Made by a program: the position numbers and the translations under genes. A stretch of 6,202 nt of DNA from Candidatus Nanopusillus sp. (lineage in GTDB: Archaea > Nanobdellota > Nanobdellia > Nanobdellales > Nanobdellaceae): assembly GCA_046536775.1 (NCBI GenBank), contig JAWDMD010000025.1:1-6202 (forward strand), read 5' to 3'. The notes below the pieces were generated by a model that worked only from the letters and a program-made list of their open reading frames with translations, was not told where the DNA came from and did not search any database. Positions 3 to 5,862 of the stretch are shown here, piece by piece; positions within the stretch are counted from its first letter, which is position 1; each line of letters begins with the position of its first letter.

Positions 3-230
3 TTAATTATTTTTATTATTTGGTTTTTGTTCATTTTTTGTGAAGGGTAGACTTCCTTCAATAAGAGAAAAAGCAATAAAGACAGCAATTAAAATAAATA
101 TAATATAGGCAAGTATACTACTTATGTCTTGAGTCTCTACAAGATGTATCCCGTAAAGAATTATAGAAGATGGTATTCCTGAAAGAAAGGTAATAACCCA
201 AGTTTTAGAAAATGATATATTTATATTCAA
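3..230 (-). CDS. small hypothetical membrane protein (2 predicted TM helices, Lys/Asn-rich C-terminal tail)
   Basis: The 75-codon ORF ends in TAA (3..5). Two hydrophobic stretches (WVITFLSGIPSSIILYGIHLV and ISSILAYIIFILIAVFIAFSLI) are followed by a polar tail, KNEQKPNNKNN. The start codon is TTG (plus-strand caa at 228..230) and the ORF contains no ATG. The same frame stays open upstream to a stop at 351..353. The start, and the gene itself, are therefore uncertain. Confidence 0.45.
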   Translation of the reverse strand: MNINISFSKTWVITFLSGIPSSIILYGIHLVETQDISSILAYIIFILIAVFIAFSLIEGSLPFTKNEQKPNNKNN

Positions 231-414: not shown

Positions 415-3400
415 TTATTTTCCAGATAGTATATCCATTAATTCTTTAAATCCTTCTAATTCTTCTTTAGAAATTCCATATAATTCAGCAGCTGATAAAT
501 CAATTTCATCTTCAACTTTTTTAAGTTCTTCTTTTGCATTAATATTTTTACAATAATCAGGTTTATTATTGGAATATATACATTTTGCTAATTCATGAGC
601 TCTTTCAGATAATTTAGCAATTTTCTTATGTAAATTATTATTGGGATCAAATTTTGGTATTTTAATGATATCTATAATGTTAGTAGATATTACTGTCTCA
701 TATGTGTAAGATGCTATGATAGAACGTGCTATAACCGAGTTTAAGATACCAGCAATATAATATGCCTCATCAGATGTCTTTGTTTCTACTAACATAAGTT
801 TAACATTAGGTATAGTAGGTTTTCCATTAATAGGTTCAACAACTGCGCAAGCAAAACTTGCTGCTTTGCCTGTAATAGCACCAGTTATATTTTTCCATAC
901 AACTTTATAGGGTGCAAAAGTATATGTACCTATATCGTATATAGAATAAAAAGGATTTCCTTTACCCCATAATTTATGTATTGATCTATTTTCCAATTCA
1001 TTCTTATAATTAGATAAATAATCATATGTAAGATGCCATCTATCTTTCATATCTCTCTCTGAAATAGGTTTTGCTGTTTTTGGGTCATGTGGTACAATAA
1101 TATATCTATCTTTAAACTCTACATACCATTTTTTTACATCTCTACCCCTAATTAATGGATAAATAAGGTCTGGTTCTACTTTTTTATCTTTAATTTGTTT
1201 GACTTTTTTCTTTTGTCCACTTTCGGGCGGATTAGTTATTATTAACATGTTGTCATAAGACTTTCCGTATACTTTAACATAATAAATCTGATCAAGACCT
1301 ACATAAACTCCTGCATGAGCTTCATAATATTGGTTTCCACTTATTACTTTTCTAATTGCATTTACAATATTGGGTTTAACTTGCATCCATGGTGATGATG
1401 GATCATTGGGAATTAGGGGTACCATTGTTATTTCATAGTGTTTTATTTCATGGTGTTTTGTCATCTCAATGATATCTTTTAAAGATTTATTTGGATCTAT
1501 TTTCTTTCCATTCCATATAACATGTTTGATACTATTCATATTTTCTTTTTGTACTTTTCTAATAATTTCGCATTCATTATCATTCATATTATCTAATTCA
1601 CAAACTTTTTCAACAATAATAATTCCTGTTCTATTTGTTGCACCTTCAAATGGTGCTAATGTTACTAAATCATGGATAACATGTATTTTTGTTCTTCTAG
1701 CTAAGAAATTTCTAAAACCAGCACCAGCCTGATTTTTAAATACTGTAAATGTTATTACAAATCCTAATTTTCCACCTACTTTTAAATATAAATCAAAACA
1801 CCTTGCTAAGAATAACATAGATAAATCTCTCTTAACTTTACCTAATCCGGTTTTTCCCTTAATTTCTAATAATCCATACTTTTTCCAAAGTTCTTTGCTT
1901 GATTCTCTATATTGTTCAGGTAGACTCTCCCAATTTATCCATGGGGGATTGCCAATTATATAATCAAATTTGCCTTTTAATAACGGAGCAAATGCATTTT
2001 TAATTATATATATCCATATACCATCTTTACCTTCTTTTTCGAGCTTAAATAATTCTTGATAAAGCTTAGCCAATTTTTTTCTTTCTTTTAATAAAATTTC
2101 TTTCTCTTCAGGGGGTAAGTTGAAGAAGGATATTCTTTTTTCAAAATCTTCATCTGTCCATTTATATTTTAGGCCTTTTCTCATTTCATTCAATAAATCC
2201 TTTAGAAGCTTTGTATTTCTTGCTATATCATCAGGTATTCTAAGGTCAACAAATTTCTTCTCCCCTATTCTAATTTTTAATTTAAAATATTTACCATCAT
2301 ATAAGTGTTCTTCTTGAATAATTATAGAATCTGCTAAATAAATTGGAATCTCGATGCTCCCTAATTCATTTCTATTAGCAGAAATTAGATCTCCTATAGC
2401 TAATAAATAATTTGTTCTTGCAGCTAAAACGGCTAATGGATTTAAATCATAACCAACAACATTTTCAAGTACATATTTAGCTAATTTATCTTTTAAGTAA
2501 TATTTTTCTGCATATCTTTTTAATCTACTAATATAAAGTATAAGAAATGTACCCGATCCACATGCAGGATCTAAAACTCTAATTTTTAATGGTTTTAAAT
2601 CATCTTCTTTTCCCATATTTTCTAAATTTTCATAGCTTAGGCCAATCTCATCAAGTAATAATTCGGCTAACCAATCAGGTGTATAATATTCACCAAAGCG
2701 ATGTCTAATATCCCTTGGAATAAGATCTTGATATAAATCTTTTAATAAGTCTCTAGTAGATTCTGGATTTGATTTAATTGTGGTCATATCGTAGTTTGAA
2801 AGTTCCTTTACAAGGTCAATAATGGCTTCTGCTAATTTATTGTCAATTTTTTCTATATACCAAGAAAAATAATCTCCTTCTAAAAAGTTTTCAATACCTA
2901 AAAGTTCTTTAAATATATATCCACTTTCTACTTTTTGTAATTCATCTTTTAAACCTTCGGTTAGTTTAGATTTGTAAGCTTCTCGGAGATCTCCAATATA
3001 AGATCTATATAATTCGCCATTTGCATGTATAGAAGCTATTTCAGCAGCAAGTAGTTTCATTATTAATGCATAATATGTATGTATTGCAAAAATAAGATAA
3101 GAATAATTAATATTATCTTCTTTAATTTCATAGTATTCTTTTAATTCTTTTAATTCTTTAAATTTTTCAAGATCTTTTTCATCACTATAACCTATGATTT
3201 GTCCAAATAATCTTTTCCAGTCATTAAATAATGCCCATGTCTTTTCTTTTTCTGTTGTATTTAATAATTTTGTATAAAGTAATCTTACTATTTTTTTAGA
3301 TATTTGTGATTTTATACCAAAATCTTTGGCAAGTTCTTCAGCACTTAAACTTTTCTTTCTTAGACCTCTTAAAGCTTCTATTAATTCTTTAATACTCTCT

Positions 3401-3843
3401 TTGTTTATTTCAAAGGGCCCTTCTAATCTCCATTTATTTTCTGTTTTATTATATCTGACAAAAGCGATTTTATCGCTAATAATTACACCTAAAAAATCAT
3501 CTAAATCTTTTTTATCATGTTCAGCTTTTTCTAATATATAATTTCTAACTTGCTCTTCTGCTGATTCAGATGAAAATTTATAAGGATCTTTAAATTCAAT
3601 GATAACATTTCCGCATAAAAGATCAATTCTCTTACCAGAAGGTAAAGTATATTCAAGTTCGAATGGAATATTTATACCTTCTCTTTTTAAAGGTTCTATT
3701 ATCTTGTTTATAATACAATTTGATACTAAAAATCTTAAATTTTCTTCTTTCCCTTTAGTAAGTGCTTGATTTACTGCATTTTTAAAGCATTCTACAATAT
3801 CATCAATATTTAATTTATCTAGGGGGTTAATATCAGAAGACAT
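415..3843 (-). CDS. Type IIG single-polypeptide restriction endonuclease / N6-adenine DNA methyltransferase fusion (MmeI/Eco57I-like domain order: nuclease-helical linker-MTase-TRD)
   Basis: Uninterrupted 1142-codon ORF from ATG to TAA. The N-terminus carries GKRIDLLCGNVIIEFKDP (D74-x8-E83-x-K85), followed by AEEQVRNYI and VIISDKIAFVRY, a pattern I recall from MmeI-type N-terminal nucleases. MTase motif X is FGEYYTP (aa 383-389), motif I is VLDPACGSGTFL (aa 423-434), motif II/III is VVGYDLNPLAV...IPIYLADS, and motif IV is IIGNPPWINW (N632). The C-terminus has GILNSVIARSII and the ending EIDLSAAELYGISKEELEGF, typical of TaqI_C/HsdS-like recognition modules. All antisense ORFs are short and low-complexity. 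Confidence 0.9.
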   Translation of the reverse strand: MSSDINPLDKLNIDDIVECFKNAVNQALTKGKEENLRFLVSNCIINKIIEPLKREGINIPFELEYTLPSGKRIDLLCGNVIIEFKDPYKFSSESAEEQVRNYILEKAEHDKKDLDDFLGVIISDKIAFVRYNKTENKWRLEGPFEINKESIKELIEALRGLRKKSLSAEELAKDFGIKSQISKKIVRLLYTKLLNTTEKEKTWALFNDWKRLFGQIIGYSDEKDLEKFKELKELKEYYEIKEDNINYSYLIFAIHTYYALIMKLLAAEIASIHANGELYRSYIGDLREAYKSKLTEGLKDELQKVESGYIFKELLGIENFLEGDYFSWYIEKIDNKLAEAIIDLVKELSNYDMTTIKSNPESTRDLLKDLYQDLIPRDIRHRFGEYYTPDWLAELLLDEIGLSYENLENMGKEDDLKPLKIRVLDPACGSGTFLILYISRLKRYAEKYYLKDKLAKYVLENVVGYDLNPLAVLAARTNYLLAIGDLISANRNELGSIEIPIYLADSIIIQEEHLYDGKYFKLKIRIGEKKFVDLRIPDDIARNTKLLKDLLNEMRKGLKYKWTDEDFEKRISFFNLPPEEKEILLKERKKLAKLYQELFKLEKEGKDGIWIYIIKNAFAPLLKGKFDYIIGNPPWINWESLPEQYRESSKELWKKYGLLEIKGKTGLGKVKRDLSMLFLARCFDLYLKVGGKLGFVITFTVFKNQAGAGFRNFLARRTKIHVIHDLVTLAPFEGATNRTGIIIVEKVCELDNMNDNECEIIRKVQKENMNSIKHVIWNGKKIDPNKSLKDIIEMTKHHEIKHYEITMVPLIPNDPSSPWMQVKPNIVNAIRKVISGNQYYEAHAGVYVGLDQIYYVKVYGKSYDNMLIITNPPESGQKKKVKQIKDKKVEPDLIYPLIRGRDVKKWYVEFKDRYIIVPHDPKTAKPISERDMKDRWHLTYDYLSNYKNELENRSIHKLWGKGNPFYSIYDIGTYTFAPYKVVWKNITGAITGKAASFACAVVEPINGKPTIPNVKLMLVETKTSDEAYYIAGILNSVIARSIIASYTYETVISTNIIDIIKIPKFDPNNNLHKKIAKLSERAHELAKCIYSNNKPDYCKNINAKEELKKVEDEIDLSAAELYGISKEELEGFKELMDILSGK
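418..1602 (-). other. C-terminal target-recognition region (single TRD plus helical tail)
   Basis: About 395 aa lie downstream of the MTase core. Typical TRD elements are present: YIIVPHDP, WGKGNPFYSIYD, YKVVWKNI, YYIAGILNSVIARSII and the terminal DEIDLSAAELYGISKEELE. The assignment is by pattern recall and the specificity cannot be read from sequence. Confidence 0.55.
1603..2706 (-). other. gamma-class (X-I-II-III-IV order) N6-adenine methyltransferase core
   Basis: Motif X FGEYYTP lies at 2677..2697, motif I VLDPACGSGTFL at 2542..2577 and motif IV NPPW at 1939..1950. The post-IV block is LSMLFLARCFDLYLKVGGKLGFVITFTVF...APFEGATNRTGIIIVEK. NPPW with an upstream SAM-binding DPACGSG loop is the amino-MTase (N6-A) signature. 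The boundaries are approximate. Confidence 0.85.
3394..3843 (-). other. N-terminal PD-(D/E)xK nuclease domain of the Type IIG enzyme (catalytic motif at 3589..3624)
   Basis: Reverse complement of 3589..3630 reads aag aga att gat ctt tta tgc gga aat gtt atc att gaa ttt aaa, which is KRIDLLCGNVIIEFK. D74, E83 and K85 are all intact. The domain boundary (about aa 1-150) is an estimate. Confidence 0.7.
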
Positions 3844-3992
3844 AATATTATAATTTATAAATGGTTTATGAATTTTACTTTTGGCTTTTAATATGATATG
3901 TTAAGGAGACTATATTATTTTATTTAATTGGATTTTTCTTAAATAATATGTAATAAAGTGATAATGGAAGGCAATCTCATTAATCAGATAAT

Positions 3993-4010
3993 ATTGAAAA
4001 ATTTTTGAAT
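3993..4010. repeat. 18-bp near-palindrome ATTGAAAAATTTTTGAAT centred on A5T5
   Basis: The central AAAAATTTTT (3997..4006) is a perfect palindrome. The outer ATT/AAT arms also match, and only the G/G pair (3996/4007) breaks the symmetry. It lies 7 bp upstream of the candidate TATA box of the Zn-ribbon gene. Confidence 0.5.
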
Positions 4011-4016
4011 ACACGC

Positions 4017-4026
4017 TATATATTAA
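4017..4026 (+). promoter_or_regulatory. candidate archaeal-type TATA box for the Zn-ribbon gene (leaderless or near-leaderless transcript)
   Basis: TATATATTAA is centred about 30 nt upstream of the ATG at 4052. No GGAGG/GGTG-like ribosome-binding sequence lies between the box and the ATG. Confidence 0.4.
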
Positions 4027-4051
4027 TAAAATTTTATTCAAATTCATACTA

Positions 4052-4657
4052 ATGGTAAGATGTCCATTTTGTGGTTCTGAAGATTTAACATTAATTAGTT
4101 CATGGAAATATGGAGCTTTTGATGTATCTAGATATAAGTGTAATAAATGTGGAAATAAGTTTAATTATTATAAAGGAAAAAATACAGAATTTTATATACC
4201 AAAACCAAAAGATCAAGAAATGAATAAAGAAGAAAATAAAGAAGTTGATTATAATCATGAAGAAGTAAAATCTTGGTTACAAGAGATTGGTGAAGTATTA
4301 GGATATTATGCTTATCCTGAATATGCAGATGAACCATATAGGTTTGATATTGTCTATAAATTGTTTAATAGTAAAAAAGAATCGCCTGTGGCAGTTTTTG
4401 AAGTTGTAGATAGTAATACTGTGGATACTGCTCTTTCAAGATTATCCTATGCATATAAAATTCTTAAATCTAAGGGATTATATTTGATAGTTTTAGATAA
4501 TAAATATAAAGAGAGGGCAAAGAAATTATTAGAAAATACACATCCAGAAATAAAAGATAAAGTAGAAATATTAGATGCAAATAAAATAAAAGAATTAAGA
4601 GATATATTAAATAAATATGGGGATGACATAAAGAAATTAATAAATCTAGGAAAGTAA
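4052..4657 (+). CDS. hypothetical protein: N-terminal C4 zinc ribbon + C-terminal restriction-endonuclease-like (PD-(D/E)xK-like, Lys-less) domain
   Basis: 201-codon ORF from ATG to TAA. The zinc ribbon is C4-P-F-C7 ... RYK-C30-N-K-C33-GNKF (nt 4061..4150), the same CPxC...RYxCxxCxxxF layout as IS1 InsA-type and archaeal DNA-binding Zn ribbons. A Lys/Glu/Asn-rich linker spans aa 50-70. The C-terminal block WLQEIGEVLGYYAYPEY...YRFDIVY(D99)...PVAVFEVVDS(E117)...ALSRLSYA...GLYLIVLD has the hydrophobic strand-D / strand-E-x-x spacing of a PD-(D/E)xK fold, but reads E-V-V instead of E-x-K. The coding call is solid. The function is inferred. Confidence 0.75.
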   Translation: MVRCPFCGSEDLTLISSWKYGAFDVSRYKCNKCGNKFNYYKGKNTEFYIPKPKDQEMNKEENKEVDYNHEEVKSWLQEIGEVLGYYAYPEYADEPYRFDIVYKLFNSKKESPVAVFEVVDSNTVDTALSRLSYAYKILKSKGLYLIVLDNKYKERAKKLLENTHPEIKDKVEILDANKIKELRDILNKYGDDIKKLINLGK

Positions 4658-4660
4658 ATA

Positions 4661-4668
4661 TATTTTTG
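4661..4668 (+). terminator. T-tract terminator candidate after the Zn-ribbon gene
   Basis: TATTTTTG (a run of five T at 4663..4667) begins 4 nt after the TAA at 4655..4657. Oligo-T tracts are the usual archaeal termination signal. Confidence 0.3.
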
Positions 4669-4778
4669 GTTGATTTAGATTCTTTGTTTATAGATTTCTA
4701 TAATTATTTAAATATTAATATTTGATATTTAAATACCCATTGAAATAGATAAAAATAAGCAAGCTTTTTCTCTCTAAA

Positions 4779-4802
4779 TTAATAGATTTATATATCTATT
4801 AA
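4779..4802. repeat. perfect 9-bp inverted repeat TTAATAGAT-(6)-ATCTATTAA
   Basis: The left arm is 4779..4787 and the right arm is 4794..4802, which is its exact reverse complement. The spacer is TTATAT. It is part of a local cluster of ATAGAT motifs. Confidence 0.6.
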
Positions 4803-4903
4803 CAATTTAGACATAAAAATAAAATTTTTAATATTTTGTTAATATCTTTTCAATTTAATAAAATAAATCTTTATAATAAATTATTTTTTAAGAGTGTTAA
4901 AAG

Positions 4904-4911
4904 TTTATAAA
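4904..4911 (+). promoter_or_regulatory. candidate archaeal-type TATA box for the membrane-protein pair (leaderless transcript)
   Basis: TTTATAAA is preceded by the purine-rich TTAAAAG. The box centre lies about 26 nt upstream of the A of the ATG at 4933, which is the canonical TATA-to-TSS distance for archaeal promoters. No Shine-Dalgarno sequence is present. Confidence 0.5.
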
Positions 4912-4932
4912 AAGGCAATAAAATATTAATCT

Positions 4933-5367
4933 ATGTCTATAAACAATGATCAAATATTGATAGTATTTCTAATAGGCTGGTCTATTTTGTTAGGAACATA
5001 CTTTAGCAAATTTATAGAGTTGCTATCATCAAATCTTATATCGGTAAATCTTATATCATTAATACAGGTCATTGGGATTATAACCATGTTTTTTCTTTCT
5101 GTATTATTAGCATCATATATAGTGTCAAAGATAAAAGATGAAGATGAGGATATAGCAATAAAATTGACTATAGGTTTGTCTCTATTATATATAGCTGGAT
5201 TCATATTAGCCATAATTCCTACTAATAATCCAGCTATGTTTGAATATTATGTGATAATATCATTTATAATATCAATACTATTATGTTTTTATCTCAGAAG
5301 AAAAGGATATTTATTTATGAATGGTGGTGGGTTATTAGAAAATTTTGTATTTTGGTCAGTAATTTAG
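4933..5367 (+). CDS. hypothetical polytopic membrane protein (about 4 TM helices)
   Basis: 144-codon ORF from ATG to TAG. There are four long hydrophobic segments, with an acidic loop KIKDEDED between TM2 and TM3. A TTTATAAA box sits 22-29 nt upstream of the ATG. The antisense ORF 4950..5213 is low-complexity. Confidence 0.7.
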   Translation: MSINNDQILIVFLIGWSILLGTYFSKFIELLSSNLISVNLISLIQVIGIITMFFLSVLLASYIVSKIKDEDEDIAIKLTIGLSLLYIAGFILAIIPTNNPAMFEYYVIISFIISILLCFYLRRKGYLFMNGGGLLENFVFWSVI

Positions 5368-5373
5368 TCTATT

Positions 5374-5862
5374 ATGTTGGGATGGTATTTCTTTAAATCT
5401 ATAAAATTTATAGCATATGTATTGTCAACATCTCTAATATATCCATTATCTCTAATATACTCATCACCTATTATAGGGTTTATTTTCCTTATATTATTAG
5501 TACCATATTTTTTATCCGAGATAGAAGATTTGGATAATGAAAAATTAAAAATATTATATACTTGTATAACGATATTATATCTAATAGGAGACATACTTGC
5601 TGTCAAAGTCAATTGGCTTATAGTTATATGGATTGGAATATTGATGTTTATATTATTTATATTATCATTATTGGAAGGATCAGGTAAAGCAAAAAATGAT
5701 TTGTTTGCATTACTTTTATTATTAGCTATTTTCTTAATAATCATATTGATAATGGGAATTATATCAAATACATTAGTAGGTATGCTATTAATGTTAACAA
5801 TATTAATAATCCAGGCTACAATTATAATGTTAATATTAATATACAATGCATATTATTATTAA
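5374..5862 (+). CDS. hypothetical polytopic membrane protein (about 6 TM helices), paralog-like to the upstream ORF
   Basis: 162-codon ORF from ATG to TAA. It starts 6 nt after the upstream stop and in the same frame. Six hydrophobic segments are present, and the acidic loop SEIEDLDNEK between TM2 and TM3 aligns with the upstream ORF. The competing antisense ORF 5364..5846 is Asn/Ile low-complexity, typical of a shadow frame in AT-rich DNA. Confidence 0.7.
   Translation: MLGWYFFKSIKFIAYVLSTSLIYPLSLIYSSPIIGFIFLILLVPYFLSEIEDLDNEKLKILYTCITILYLIGDILAVKVNWLIVIWIGILMFILFILSLLEGSGKAKNDLFALLLLLAIFLIIILIMGIISNTLVGMLLMLTILIIQATIIMLILIYNAYYY

Follow-up and report, generated by a model that had tools for sequence, protein, structure and literature searches.

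A two-module zinc-ribbon protein encoded head-to-head with a Type IIG restriction-modification gene in Candidatus Nanopusillus

What might a gene annotated as hypothetical be doing head-to-head with a restriction-modification (R-M) gene? The question arises in a 6,202-bp stretch of DNA from Candidatus Nanopusillus sp. with a G+C content of ~25%, here called the window, where a Type IIG R-M gene faces the gene at 4052..4657. The original prediction was that this gene encodes a zinc ribbon joined to a lysine-less endonuclease-like domain and is a candidate partner of the R-M enzyme. Our analysis shows that it encodes a two-module accessory protein of a Type IIG R-M locus, and establishes its domain composition, the two families from which it is built, the conserved gene orders and fusions in which those families occur, and a partial loss of family-conserved residues. 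The list of open reading frames (ORFs) confirms the ORF, its coordinates, and its placement across 208 bp from a neighbor that PADLOC and Pfam identify as a Type IIG gene:

4052..4657, plus strand: the whole gene, 201 codons and a stop with an ATG start, encoding a zinc ribbon, a linker, and a restriction-endonuclease-fold domain
3844..4051, no strand: the divergent intergenic region, 208 bp, holding both putative promoters
415..3843, minus strand: the Type IIG R-M gene, 1142 amino acids, head-to-head with 4052..4657

The gene at 4052..4657 is real, conserved, and under purifying selection. Its 201-residue product is 100% identical to the NCBI entry 'hypothetical protein RXN79_02720 [Candidatus Nanopusillus sp.]'. 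It has 13 close homologs (75-100% identity), every one on Nanopusillus-like contigs, including one in the complete genome of Candidatus Nanopusillus acidilobi 7A (locus L008), and the pairwise ratio of nonsynonymous to synonymous substitution rates (dN/dS) is 0.13-0.35 for both halves of the gene. These close relatives retain the divergent pairing with the Type IIG gene, which at such divergence is merely synteny. As for the neighbor, the PADLOC model REase_MTase_IIG covers the 1142-residue product at E=0 (residues 17-1140), Pfam finds Eco57I (4.6e-18), N6_Mtase, and MmeI_Mtase, and inspection of the translation reveals D74...E83-F-K85 near the N-terminus. The enzyme has the Type IIG layout, in which one polypeptide combines a nuclease motif at the N-terminus, a gamma-class N6-adenine methylase core, and a recognition region at the C-terminus. 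It is 54% identical to a Thermoproteota homolog (locus L022) and 66% identical to its N. acidilobi orthologue (L008 4404-7805), compared to 88% for the adjoining zinc-ribbon/nuclease-fold protein. On these identities the R-M enzyme is diverging much faster than the protein beside it, and we suspect the recognition domain as the source.

To describe the protein itself, we gave AlphaFold2 an alignment of distant relatives (122 sequences); the resulting model supersedes a run on close homologs only (predicted local distance difference test, pLDDT, of 66). The model of the 201-residue protein has a mean pLDDT of 93.4 and a predicted template modeling score of 0.74, and resolves the following parts:

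4052..4219, plus strand: zinc-ribbon module, residues 1-56, with four beta strands (12-20, 23-30, 36-41, 46-50) at pLDDT 93-96
4061-4063, 4070-4072, 4139-4141, and 4148-4150, plus strand: zinc-ribbon cysteines Cys4, Cys7, Cys30, and Cys33, in C4-P-F-C7 and R27-Y-K-C30-N-K-C33-G-N-K-F37
4220..4249, plus strand: linker, residues 57-66, acidic/lysine-rich and absent in free-standing zinc-ribbon proteins
4250..4651, plus strand: restriction-endonuclease-fold (PD-(D/E)xK-like) domain, residues 67-200, at pLDDT 95-98, hereafter the C-domain
4256-4258, 4283-4285, 4319-4321, 4346-4348, 4400-4402, and 4406-4408, plus strand: C-domain residues H69, E78, E90, D99, E117, and V119, the last in the canonical lysine slot

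The zinc ribbon that had been read from the sequence is borne out by the modeled strands, by matches to ribbon structures, and by ribbon-family matches below threshold. In a Foldseek search, the best structure matches of this half are NrdR (9fvr, 9gex) and TFIIS-like ribbons; in the curated libraries it gives just sub-threshold matches to generic ribbons (PaaD, IS1595, NrdR, Lar). Besides the cysteines, W18-K-Y, F37-N-Y-Y, and the tail E46-F-Y-I-P-K-P-K53 are conserved. Model confidence is lowest around the linker, where 10-residue means of pLDDT fall to 64 (residues 51-60) and 83 (residues 61-70).

The C-domain is modeled as a helix (69-82), three strands (86-93, 96-103, 114-119), a helix (124-137), and a strand (142-147), followed beyond this core by a helix (151-162), a strand (171-175), and helices in 176-200. 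Residues 67-200 contain the alpha-beta-beta-beta-alpha-beta core order of the PD-(D/E)xK superfamily within a topology of alpha-beta-beta-beta-alpha-beta-alpha-beta, where the second strand carries D99 and the third carries E117-x-V119. The helices and strands proposed earlier (WLQEIGEVLGY, RFDIVY, VAVFEVV, ALSRLSYAY, and LYLIVLD) coincide with modeled elements, and the motifs quoted with them, C4-P-F-C7, R27...F37, D99 in RFDIVY, and E117-V118-V119, are all present. The idea of a restriction-endonuclease-like core is upheld by this topology; among solved structures the best matches are PD-(D/E)xK nucleases, but they are weak. The best PDB hit is EndoMS/NucS (5gke, E=8e-3, probability 0.97), and further weak matches include EcoT38I, Can2, Cdn1, and the R2 restriction-like endonuclease (9dou). 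Sequence and profile searches of the PDB returned nothing meaningful for either module, and Pfam, NCBIfam, PADLOC, and PHROGs hold no family covering residues 67-200, either in the window protein or in 122 relatives; the original prediction could name no family, and none of these libraries nor the PDB supplies one for either module. Comparison of the C-domain with the N-terminal nuclease domain of the Type IIG enzyme by hhalign gave a probability of 0.2%, that is, no similarity.

What ties such a protein to an R-M gene? The evidence comes from the ribbon. An exhaustive HMMER search recovered ribbon-only proteins of 54-81 amino acids that match solely residues 1-56, and free-standing homologs in Thermoproteota measure 55-90 amino acids. 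By profile search the family, typically free-standing proteins of 60-70 amino acids, comprises at least 432 clusters, all annotated as 'hypothetical', 'uncharacterized Zn finger', or 'transposase-like'. When one genome per species was scanned, full-length fusions of ribbon and C-domain occurred in Nanopusillus only, and ribbon-only genes turned up in Caldivirga, Metallosphaera, Zestosphaera, Acidilobaceae, Desulfurococcales, Sulfolobales, and other Thermoproteota; a scan of hot-spring metagenomes added 80 further ribbon loci. IMG/VR viral contigs contain no relatives of the ribbon.

Local annotation of all ribbon loci used profiles and Type IIG seeds. Of 97 loci outside Nanopusillus, 57 have a Type IIG-like ORF at most 3.5 kb from the ribbon gene. 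In 87 loci the sequence extends 600 nt or more past the ribbon gene, and in 34 of these the ORF comes next downstream in the same orientation. When ribbons are clustered at 80% identity, 28 of 52 clusters have at least one Type IIG-linked member. The two genes are closely spaced: in 23 of 27 pairs, the earliest codon at which the Type IIG ORF could start lies -4 to +26 nt from the ribbon stop. Eco57I/N6_Mtase domains were confirmed by Pfam in L010, L016, and L019, representatives of three enzyme subfamilies, and the pairing is kept across at least five divergent Type IIG subfamilies, down to 29% identity; the closest relative of the window enzyme outside Nanopusillus (L022) has a free-standing ribbon gene directly upstream. 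Given that archaeal genomes carry just under one Type IIG system each (PMC10609329), we judge, without a formal background, that this adjacency is far beyond chance. Less often, the neighbors of the ribbon are genes for Type I HsdR, N6_N4 methylase, and SNF2/HerA-type proteins. Never, among ~430 clusters, is the ribbon fused to a Type IIG polypeptide.

The partnership proposed for the window gene is therefore a genuine linkage, but it is carried by the zinc ribbon and not by the nuclease-like domain. Likewise, a survey of homologs for divergent adjacency does find adjacency to Type IIG genes, but elsewhere the ribbon gene is upstream and co-oriented, so that the divergent layout is peculiar to Nanopusillus. 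The data exclude the option of an unrelated neighbor that had been left standing. Two side observations concern the ribbon family. One protein of 122 amino acids (P0220) is a ribbon in tandem duplication. Free-standing ribbons and the nearest non-Nanopusillus Type IIG relatives occur in an Acidilobus sp. (P0226), an Acidilobaceae locus (L023), and a Thermoproteota metagenome-assembled genome (L022), all from lineages to which the known host genus of N. acidilobi belongs; this hints at host-symbiont transfer of the locus.

How, then, did the ribbon and the C-domain come to be found together? They are fused in Nanopusillus and in two other lineages, represented by P0014 (52% identity) and P0016 (39%), and in several Thermoproteota loci they are separate genes side by side. 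In Caldivirga (L010), a gene for an EVE-C-domain protein (2671-3609) is followed after 53 nt by a 63-residue ribbon gene (3662-3853), with a Type IIG gene 2.2 kb beyond. Separate C-domain and ribbon genes are adjacent, in either order, in L031, L045, L046, L065, L083, and L106 as well. The fused homolog P0014 adjoins a Type IIG fragment, and P0016 lies beside genes for a MazE-like protein, a BrxL-like ATPase, and an MkoA-like helicase. The P0016 locus (L007) encodes two large proteins without a family match (531-3188, 3202-3966), a BrxL-like ATPase fragment (5180-5746), and an MkoA-like superfamily 1 helicase (5788-7689), surroundings that look like a defense island.

A second recurrent partner of the ribbon is an AbrB/MazE-type gene, which immediately precedes the ribbon gene in 29 of 105 loci; the unit in such loci has three genes, AbrB-like, zinc ribbon, and Type IIG. 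There are also in-frame AbrB-ribbon fusions (P0298; L026 709-1113), and in one protein of 221 amino acids (P0073) the ribbon lies between a ribbon-helix-helix (RHH)-like N-terminal region, assigned by eye, and a long Q/P-rich tail. A conserved small AbrB/SpoVT (MazE-antitoxin-type) gene overlaps the ribbon start in L023 (1834-2019), L028 (80-310), L039 (3715-3939), L043 (5775-6005), and ~25 other loci. The window itself contains no gene of AbrB/SpoVT type; nor do its ORFs and family matches include a helix-turn-helix (HTH) protein or any other small regulator gene, in keeping with the earlier statement that a canonical HTH controller is missing.

The C-domain belongs to a family of its own. 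At E<=1e-3, the exhaustive HMMER search yielded no fewer than 325 cluster representatives, and almost all of them align to residues ~65-197 through their own C-termini. In most relatives the domain follows a DNA-reader domain that makes up the N-terminal half. Among 122 relatives, the N-terminal halves include EVE (20 proteins), Mrr_N (13-16), winged helices, SAP, HARE-HTH, MrcB_N, DUF1802, and DUF5655, and the source annotations read 'hypothetical' or name the N-terminal half alone. Fusions of a reader to a cutter define Type IV restriction enzymes (PMC6765204, PMC7641849, PMC11037411). The C-domain seems to supply the cutting half of a new group of Type IV-like enzymes that carry EVE, Mrr_N, or winged-helix fusions. 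The surroundings of its genes agree with this: they are solitary (L111), near an MjaI-type R-M system (L114), beside an SNF2 helicase system (L106), or part of an island that also contains a Type III-like R-M system, a resolvase, and a PIN toxin (L116); two paralogous C-domain genes (313-1632 and 3746-4579) share a single 4.6-kb contig in L107. PLSDB plasmids and GenBank phages contain no relatives of the C-domain. Convergent to zinc-ribbon/EVE-C-domain genes in L011 (8181-13876) and L106 (1769-7455) are genes for an SNF2 helicase, whose C-terminus is NOV_C-like in L011, and for a conserved ~1050-residue protein without a Pfam match. An archaeal EVE-associated SNF2 helicase-nuclease system has been described (PMC7641849), and these SNF2 genes may correspond to it.

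Is the C-domain of the window protein still a nuclease? Family-wide conserved positions are H69, E78, G80, E90, D99, W102, P112, F116, E117, Q/E/H119, G122, A127, L128, L131, H133, A134, D136, and W138. The Lys-less site that had been noted, E117-V-V, is indeed present, but E-x-V is atypical of the family: where the lysine would be, the motif reads E-x-Q, E-x-E, or E-x-H in ~90% of distant relatives. Active sites of this kind are familiar from BglII (D...E-x-Q) and BamHI (D...E-x-E). In the window protein the PD-(D/E)xK catalytic motif is incomplete, D99 and E117 being invariant and the lysine slot being V119. The Nanopusillus clade retains H69, E78, E90, D99, and E117, and has Y102, V119, Y/H133, a variable residue at 136, and L/F/Y138; the family-wide H..D.W helix motif (H133..D136.W138) is lost. 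This pattern shows a partial loss of family-conserved residues in which the acidic core predicted to bind metal survives but neither the third catalytic slot nor the helix motif does. V119 and the lost helix motif make nuclease activity of the Nanopusillus C-domain doubtful. V or I at position 119 is also found in the EVE-fused relatives P0018, P0029, and P0030. Compensation of V119 by D120 was ruled out, as position 120 alternates between D and G among close relatives.

Three orthologues of the gene (L001 10001-10606, L002 2147-2749, L003 1719-2321), from three different samples, have an in-frame stop at codon 139 (...DKNF*PKG...). This allele leaves pieces of 138 and 57 amino acids, and the sequence 3' of the stop is intact. 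It retains the zinc ribbon, and in L001 the neighboring Type IIG gene is untruncated.

Does the shared intergenic region hold signs of control? When six Nanopusillus-type loci are aligned across it, A+T-rich blocks beside each start codon and two central blocks are conserved, the central blocks among close relatives only. We looked for a C-box-like operator: the best inverted repeat, 3912-3922 / 3939-3949 (10 of 11 matches), was equalled in 213 of 500 simulations, which is chance level. A sigma-70 promoter/terminator scan found 17 elements, compared to 14.2 expected, with a model that is uninformative for an archaeon.

What could the protein do at this locus? In our leading reading, which is tentative, the zinc ribbon would serve to control or couple the restriction nuclease or nucleases of its locus, and is joined here to a partly eroded cutter; we infer this function from context. 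We lean toward a controller because the ribbon gene holds the controller/antitoxin position ahead of the enzyme gene, because the ribbon is promiscuous among restriction types, because ribbon and AbrB-type proteins show the separate-or-fused pattern of regulator plus antitoxin, and because the codon-139 allele keeps the ribbon and an intact enzyme gene. The ribbon is probably the part of the Nanopusillus protein that matters for the Type IIG gene, and it would have been joined to a cutter domain from a neighboring Type IV-like gene. As to the manner of control, the ribbon would govern the nuclease either by binding the enzyme or at the promoter, two routes of nearly equal probability, the first slightly ahead. 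We give only a small chance to a broader proposal, in which the ribbon is a post-translational governor, antitoxin-like or restriction-alleviation-like, of archaeal single-chain (Type IIG) R-M enzymes. Such a governor would be made just before the enzyme and would restrain the nuclease while the genome is being methylated, solving the establishment problem for which two-gene R-M systems use C proteins instead. AbrB-type proteins would form the transcriptional arm, as in tripartite toxin-antitoxin systems, and the same ribbon would also govern the lysine-less restriction-endonuclease-fold family, its fusion partner in Nanopusillus.

Several points weigh against control by the ribbon with an eroded cutter attached. 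Even P0014, at 52% identity, has H69, E78, E90, D99, and E117 unchanged, and dN/dS is equally low in the C-domain and the zinc ribbon, so the cutter domain is not simply decaying. In the fusion, the ribbon fills the slot that DNA-reader domains take in paralogous architectures, which favors a targeting role. Approximately 40% of ribbon loci are without a Type IIG gene, and some ribbon genes adjoin housekeeping genes such as that for aldehyde ferredoxin oxidoreductase (L020, L021). The ribbon is basic with a K/R-rich tail, which suits nucleic-acid binding over occupying the DNA cleft of a nuclease, and an inverted-repeat scan against simulated sequences found no significant operator-like repeat in the shared promoter region, 3844-4051. 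We infer every functional step from genomic context.

These points lead to the main competing explanation, an active nuclease targeted by its zinc ribbon, which we regard as possible though rather unlikely. Here the ribbon would replace the EVE, Mrr_N, or winged-helix domain, and the C-domain would be a working, metal-dependent, lysine-less endonuclease, a second and independent cutter (Type IV- or Type II-like) sharing the defense island. The ribbon does sit where more than 100 paralogous architectures have a reader domain, and a reader-nuclease fusion is the established Type IV plan (PMC6765204, PMC11037411, PMC7641849). The acidic and histidine positions listed above are invariant family-wide, the fused forms at 52% and 39% identity included; purifying selection acts on the C-domain; and three EVE-fused relatives likewise have V or I at 119. 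The best structure matches of the N-terminal half are NrdR- and TFIIS-like ribbons, and ribbons of both kinds bind nucleic acid. An active targeted nuclease leaves unexplained, however, why the ribbon is mostly a free-standing gene tied to Type IIG genes, why a separate ribbon gene lies beside C-domain proteins that already have an EVE reader, and why ribbons are fused to AbrB-type and RHH-like domains. Nor does it fit well with the Nanopusillus clade, which is without Q/E/H119, D136, and W138 and varies at 120, 133, and 136, or with a truncating allele that persists in three samples. A controller and an accessory nuclease, both of which had been offered for this gene at the outset, are each compatible with the data.

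Two further roles are less likely than either control or an active nuclease. The ribbon could be an obligate subunit with a structural, activating, or specificity role, required by the Type IIG enzyme for cutting or methylation, and in Nanopusillus it would happen to be fused to another nuclease domain. The tight operon with its start/stop overlap and the conservation of the pair over at least five divergent subfamilies would fit such a subunit, but the same ribbon accompanies Type I HsdR, N6_N4 methylase, SNF2 systems, and EVE-C-domain genes, sometimes without any restriction gene; no ribbon-Type IIG fusion exists in ~430 clusters; and the Type IIG enzymes that have been characterized, BpuSI for example, act as single chains (PMC3185434), all of which makes this role improbable. 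We consider it very improbable that the ribbon is a passenger, a remnant of a mobile element or transposase that hitch-hikes with mobile R-M genes and has no functional tie to the enzyme. In favor of this are its sub-threshold likeness to IS1595/IS1 transposase zinc ribbons, the JGI auto-annotations that in some cases read 'transposase' or 'transposase-like', and the integrase or resolvase near some loci. Yet a transposase catalytic domain accompanies the ribbon in none of ~105 loci, the position and strand of the ribbon relative to the Type IIG gene are constant across subfamilies just 29% identical, the ribbon is under purifying selection, and relatives are absent from IMG/VR viral contigs (ribbon) and from PLSDB plasmids and GenBank phages (C-domain).

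What would a control role for the ribbon mean? Type IIG enzymes are treated as self-sufficient single-chain systems, and a ribbon gene ahead of them in many archaeal lineages and in at least five enzyme subfamilies implies an unrecognized regulatory or partner component; we find this conserved pairing the more surprising element. A survey of archaeal R-M systems (PMC10609329) lists no such Type IIG component, nor does the PADLOC 2.0 catalogue. Within the literature that we searched, and only there, we found no description of a zinc-ribbon partner of Type IIG genes or of this cutter family. The window protein works like part of the restriction accessory repertoire but falls outside every curated family tested, and we classify its gene as a reader/regulator-plus-cutter restriction accessory built from two unannotated families. 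Both are sizeable: the R-M-linked zinc ribbon with at least 432 clusters, and the lysine-less restriction-endonuclease-fold domain with at least 325 cluster representatives. They bear on the host safety of restriction, on the mining of modification-dependent nucleases, and on gene flow between Nanopusillus and Thermoproteota lineages, including its known host genus. In this way the gene exposes an undescribed accessory layer of archaeal restriction systems.

The remainder of the window holds three hydrophobic ORFs, which probably encode small membrane proteins:

4933-5367, plus strand: hydrophobic ORF, 144 amino acids, no family match
5374-5862, plus strand: hydrophobic ORF, 162 amino acids, no family match
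3-230, minus strand: hydrophobic ORF, 75 amino acids, no family match

Each of the three overlaps a long antisense ORF, as is typical for A+T-rich sequence, and no tRNA or Rfam elements were found within the window. In the spacer 3' of the zinc-ribbon gene (4658-4932, 275 bp, ~17-20% G+C) there is a 32-nt imperfect inverted repeat, 4687-4718 / 4722-4753, that is 78% complementary; the spacer has no Rfam match and no terminator call. At the other end of the gene, the homologs P0002, P0004, P0005, and P0010 (216-233 amino acids) have 15-32 additional N-terminal residues, from upstream starts inside a poorly conserved part of the intergenic region (window 3998-4051). These extensions look like gene-calling artefacts, because MV(K/R)CPFC is common to all versions and the window has no upstream start.

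How does the locus compare with known systems? The closest precedent for a controller is the C-protein circuit of Type II R-M systems (PMC3695507); C.PvuII, C.AhdI, and C.Esp1396I are examples of C proteins. Like a C protein, the ribbon comes from a small gene that lies just ahead of the restriction gene, overlaps it, or diverges from it (divergent here, upstream for the free-standing ribbons), is presumed to bind nucleic acid, and has many unrelated restriction genes as partners. C proteins are HTH dimers on palindromic C-boxes, whereas the ribbon is a 4-Cys zinc ribbon without an HTH match or a significant operator repeat, and often a separate AbrB-type protein is also present. Moreover, the Type IIG partner is a single chain, so delayed transcription of R relative to M is impossible.

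The relatives of the C-domain share the plan of Type IV reader-nucleases, an N-terminal reader and a C-terminal cutter, as in Mrr, the EVE/PUA-HNH and PUA-PD-(D/E)XK proteins (PMC6765204), EVE fusions (PMC7641849), and winged-helix fusions (PMC11037411); like them, they are solitary or lie within defense islands. Unlike those enzymes, their cutter matches no Mrr_cat, HNH, GIY-YIG, or PLD model, and the window protein has a zinc ribbon in place of a modified-base reader (EVE/PUA, SRA, Mrr_N, McrB_N). The family consensus D99...E117-x-[Q/E/H]119, without the canonical lysine, resembles BglII and BamHI, but there is no detectable sequence or profile similarity to either, and V119 leaves even this variant motif incomplete in the window protein.

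The ribbon also resembles Lar (TIGR03655 / PF14354), a small 4-Cys zinc-ribbon protein connected with restriction. Lar is the best NCBIfam match of the window protein (8e-6), and 9 of 11 free-standing relatives match it at E<=0.1 (best 6.8e-5). We rejected membership in that family: the score is 26.1 bits against a curated cut-off of 39.6, RpoP, YnfU, and further ribbons score just as well, and viral contigs contain no relatives. Lar is borne by phages and prophages, unlike the ribbon family, which is absent from IMG/VR viral contigs.

Tripartite and two-domain antitoxin systems, such as omega-epsilon-zeta and antitoxins headed by AbrB or RHH domains, have a regulator-antitoxin-toxin layout. 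The order AbrB-like, zinc ribbon, nuclease-bearing enzyme follows the same layout, and the AbrB-ribbon fusions and the one RHH-like-ribbon protein (RHH by eye) are consistent with it. Here, however, the candidate toxin is an R-M enzyme with its own methylase as antidote, and a neutralizing role for the ribbon is putative. Finally, although the scores are weak (E 0.01-0.03), the partner domains differ, and there is no sequence relationship, the N-terminal ribbon of NrdR (9fvr, 9gex) is the best structural neighbor of the window ribbon, and the R2 retrotransposon, with its zinc knuckle and restriction-like endonuclease (9dou), provides a precedent for a zinc module joined to a PD-(D/E)xK-like domain.

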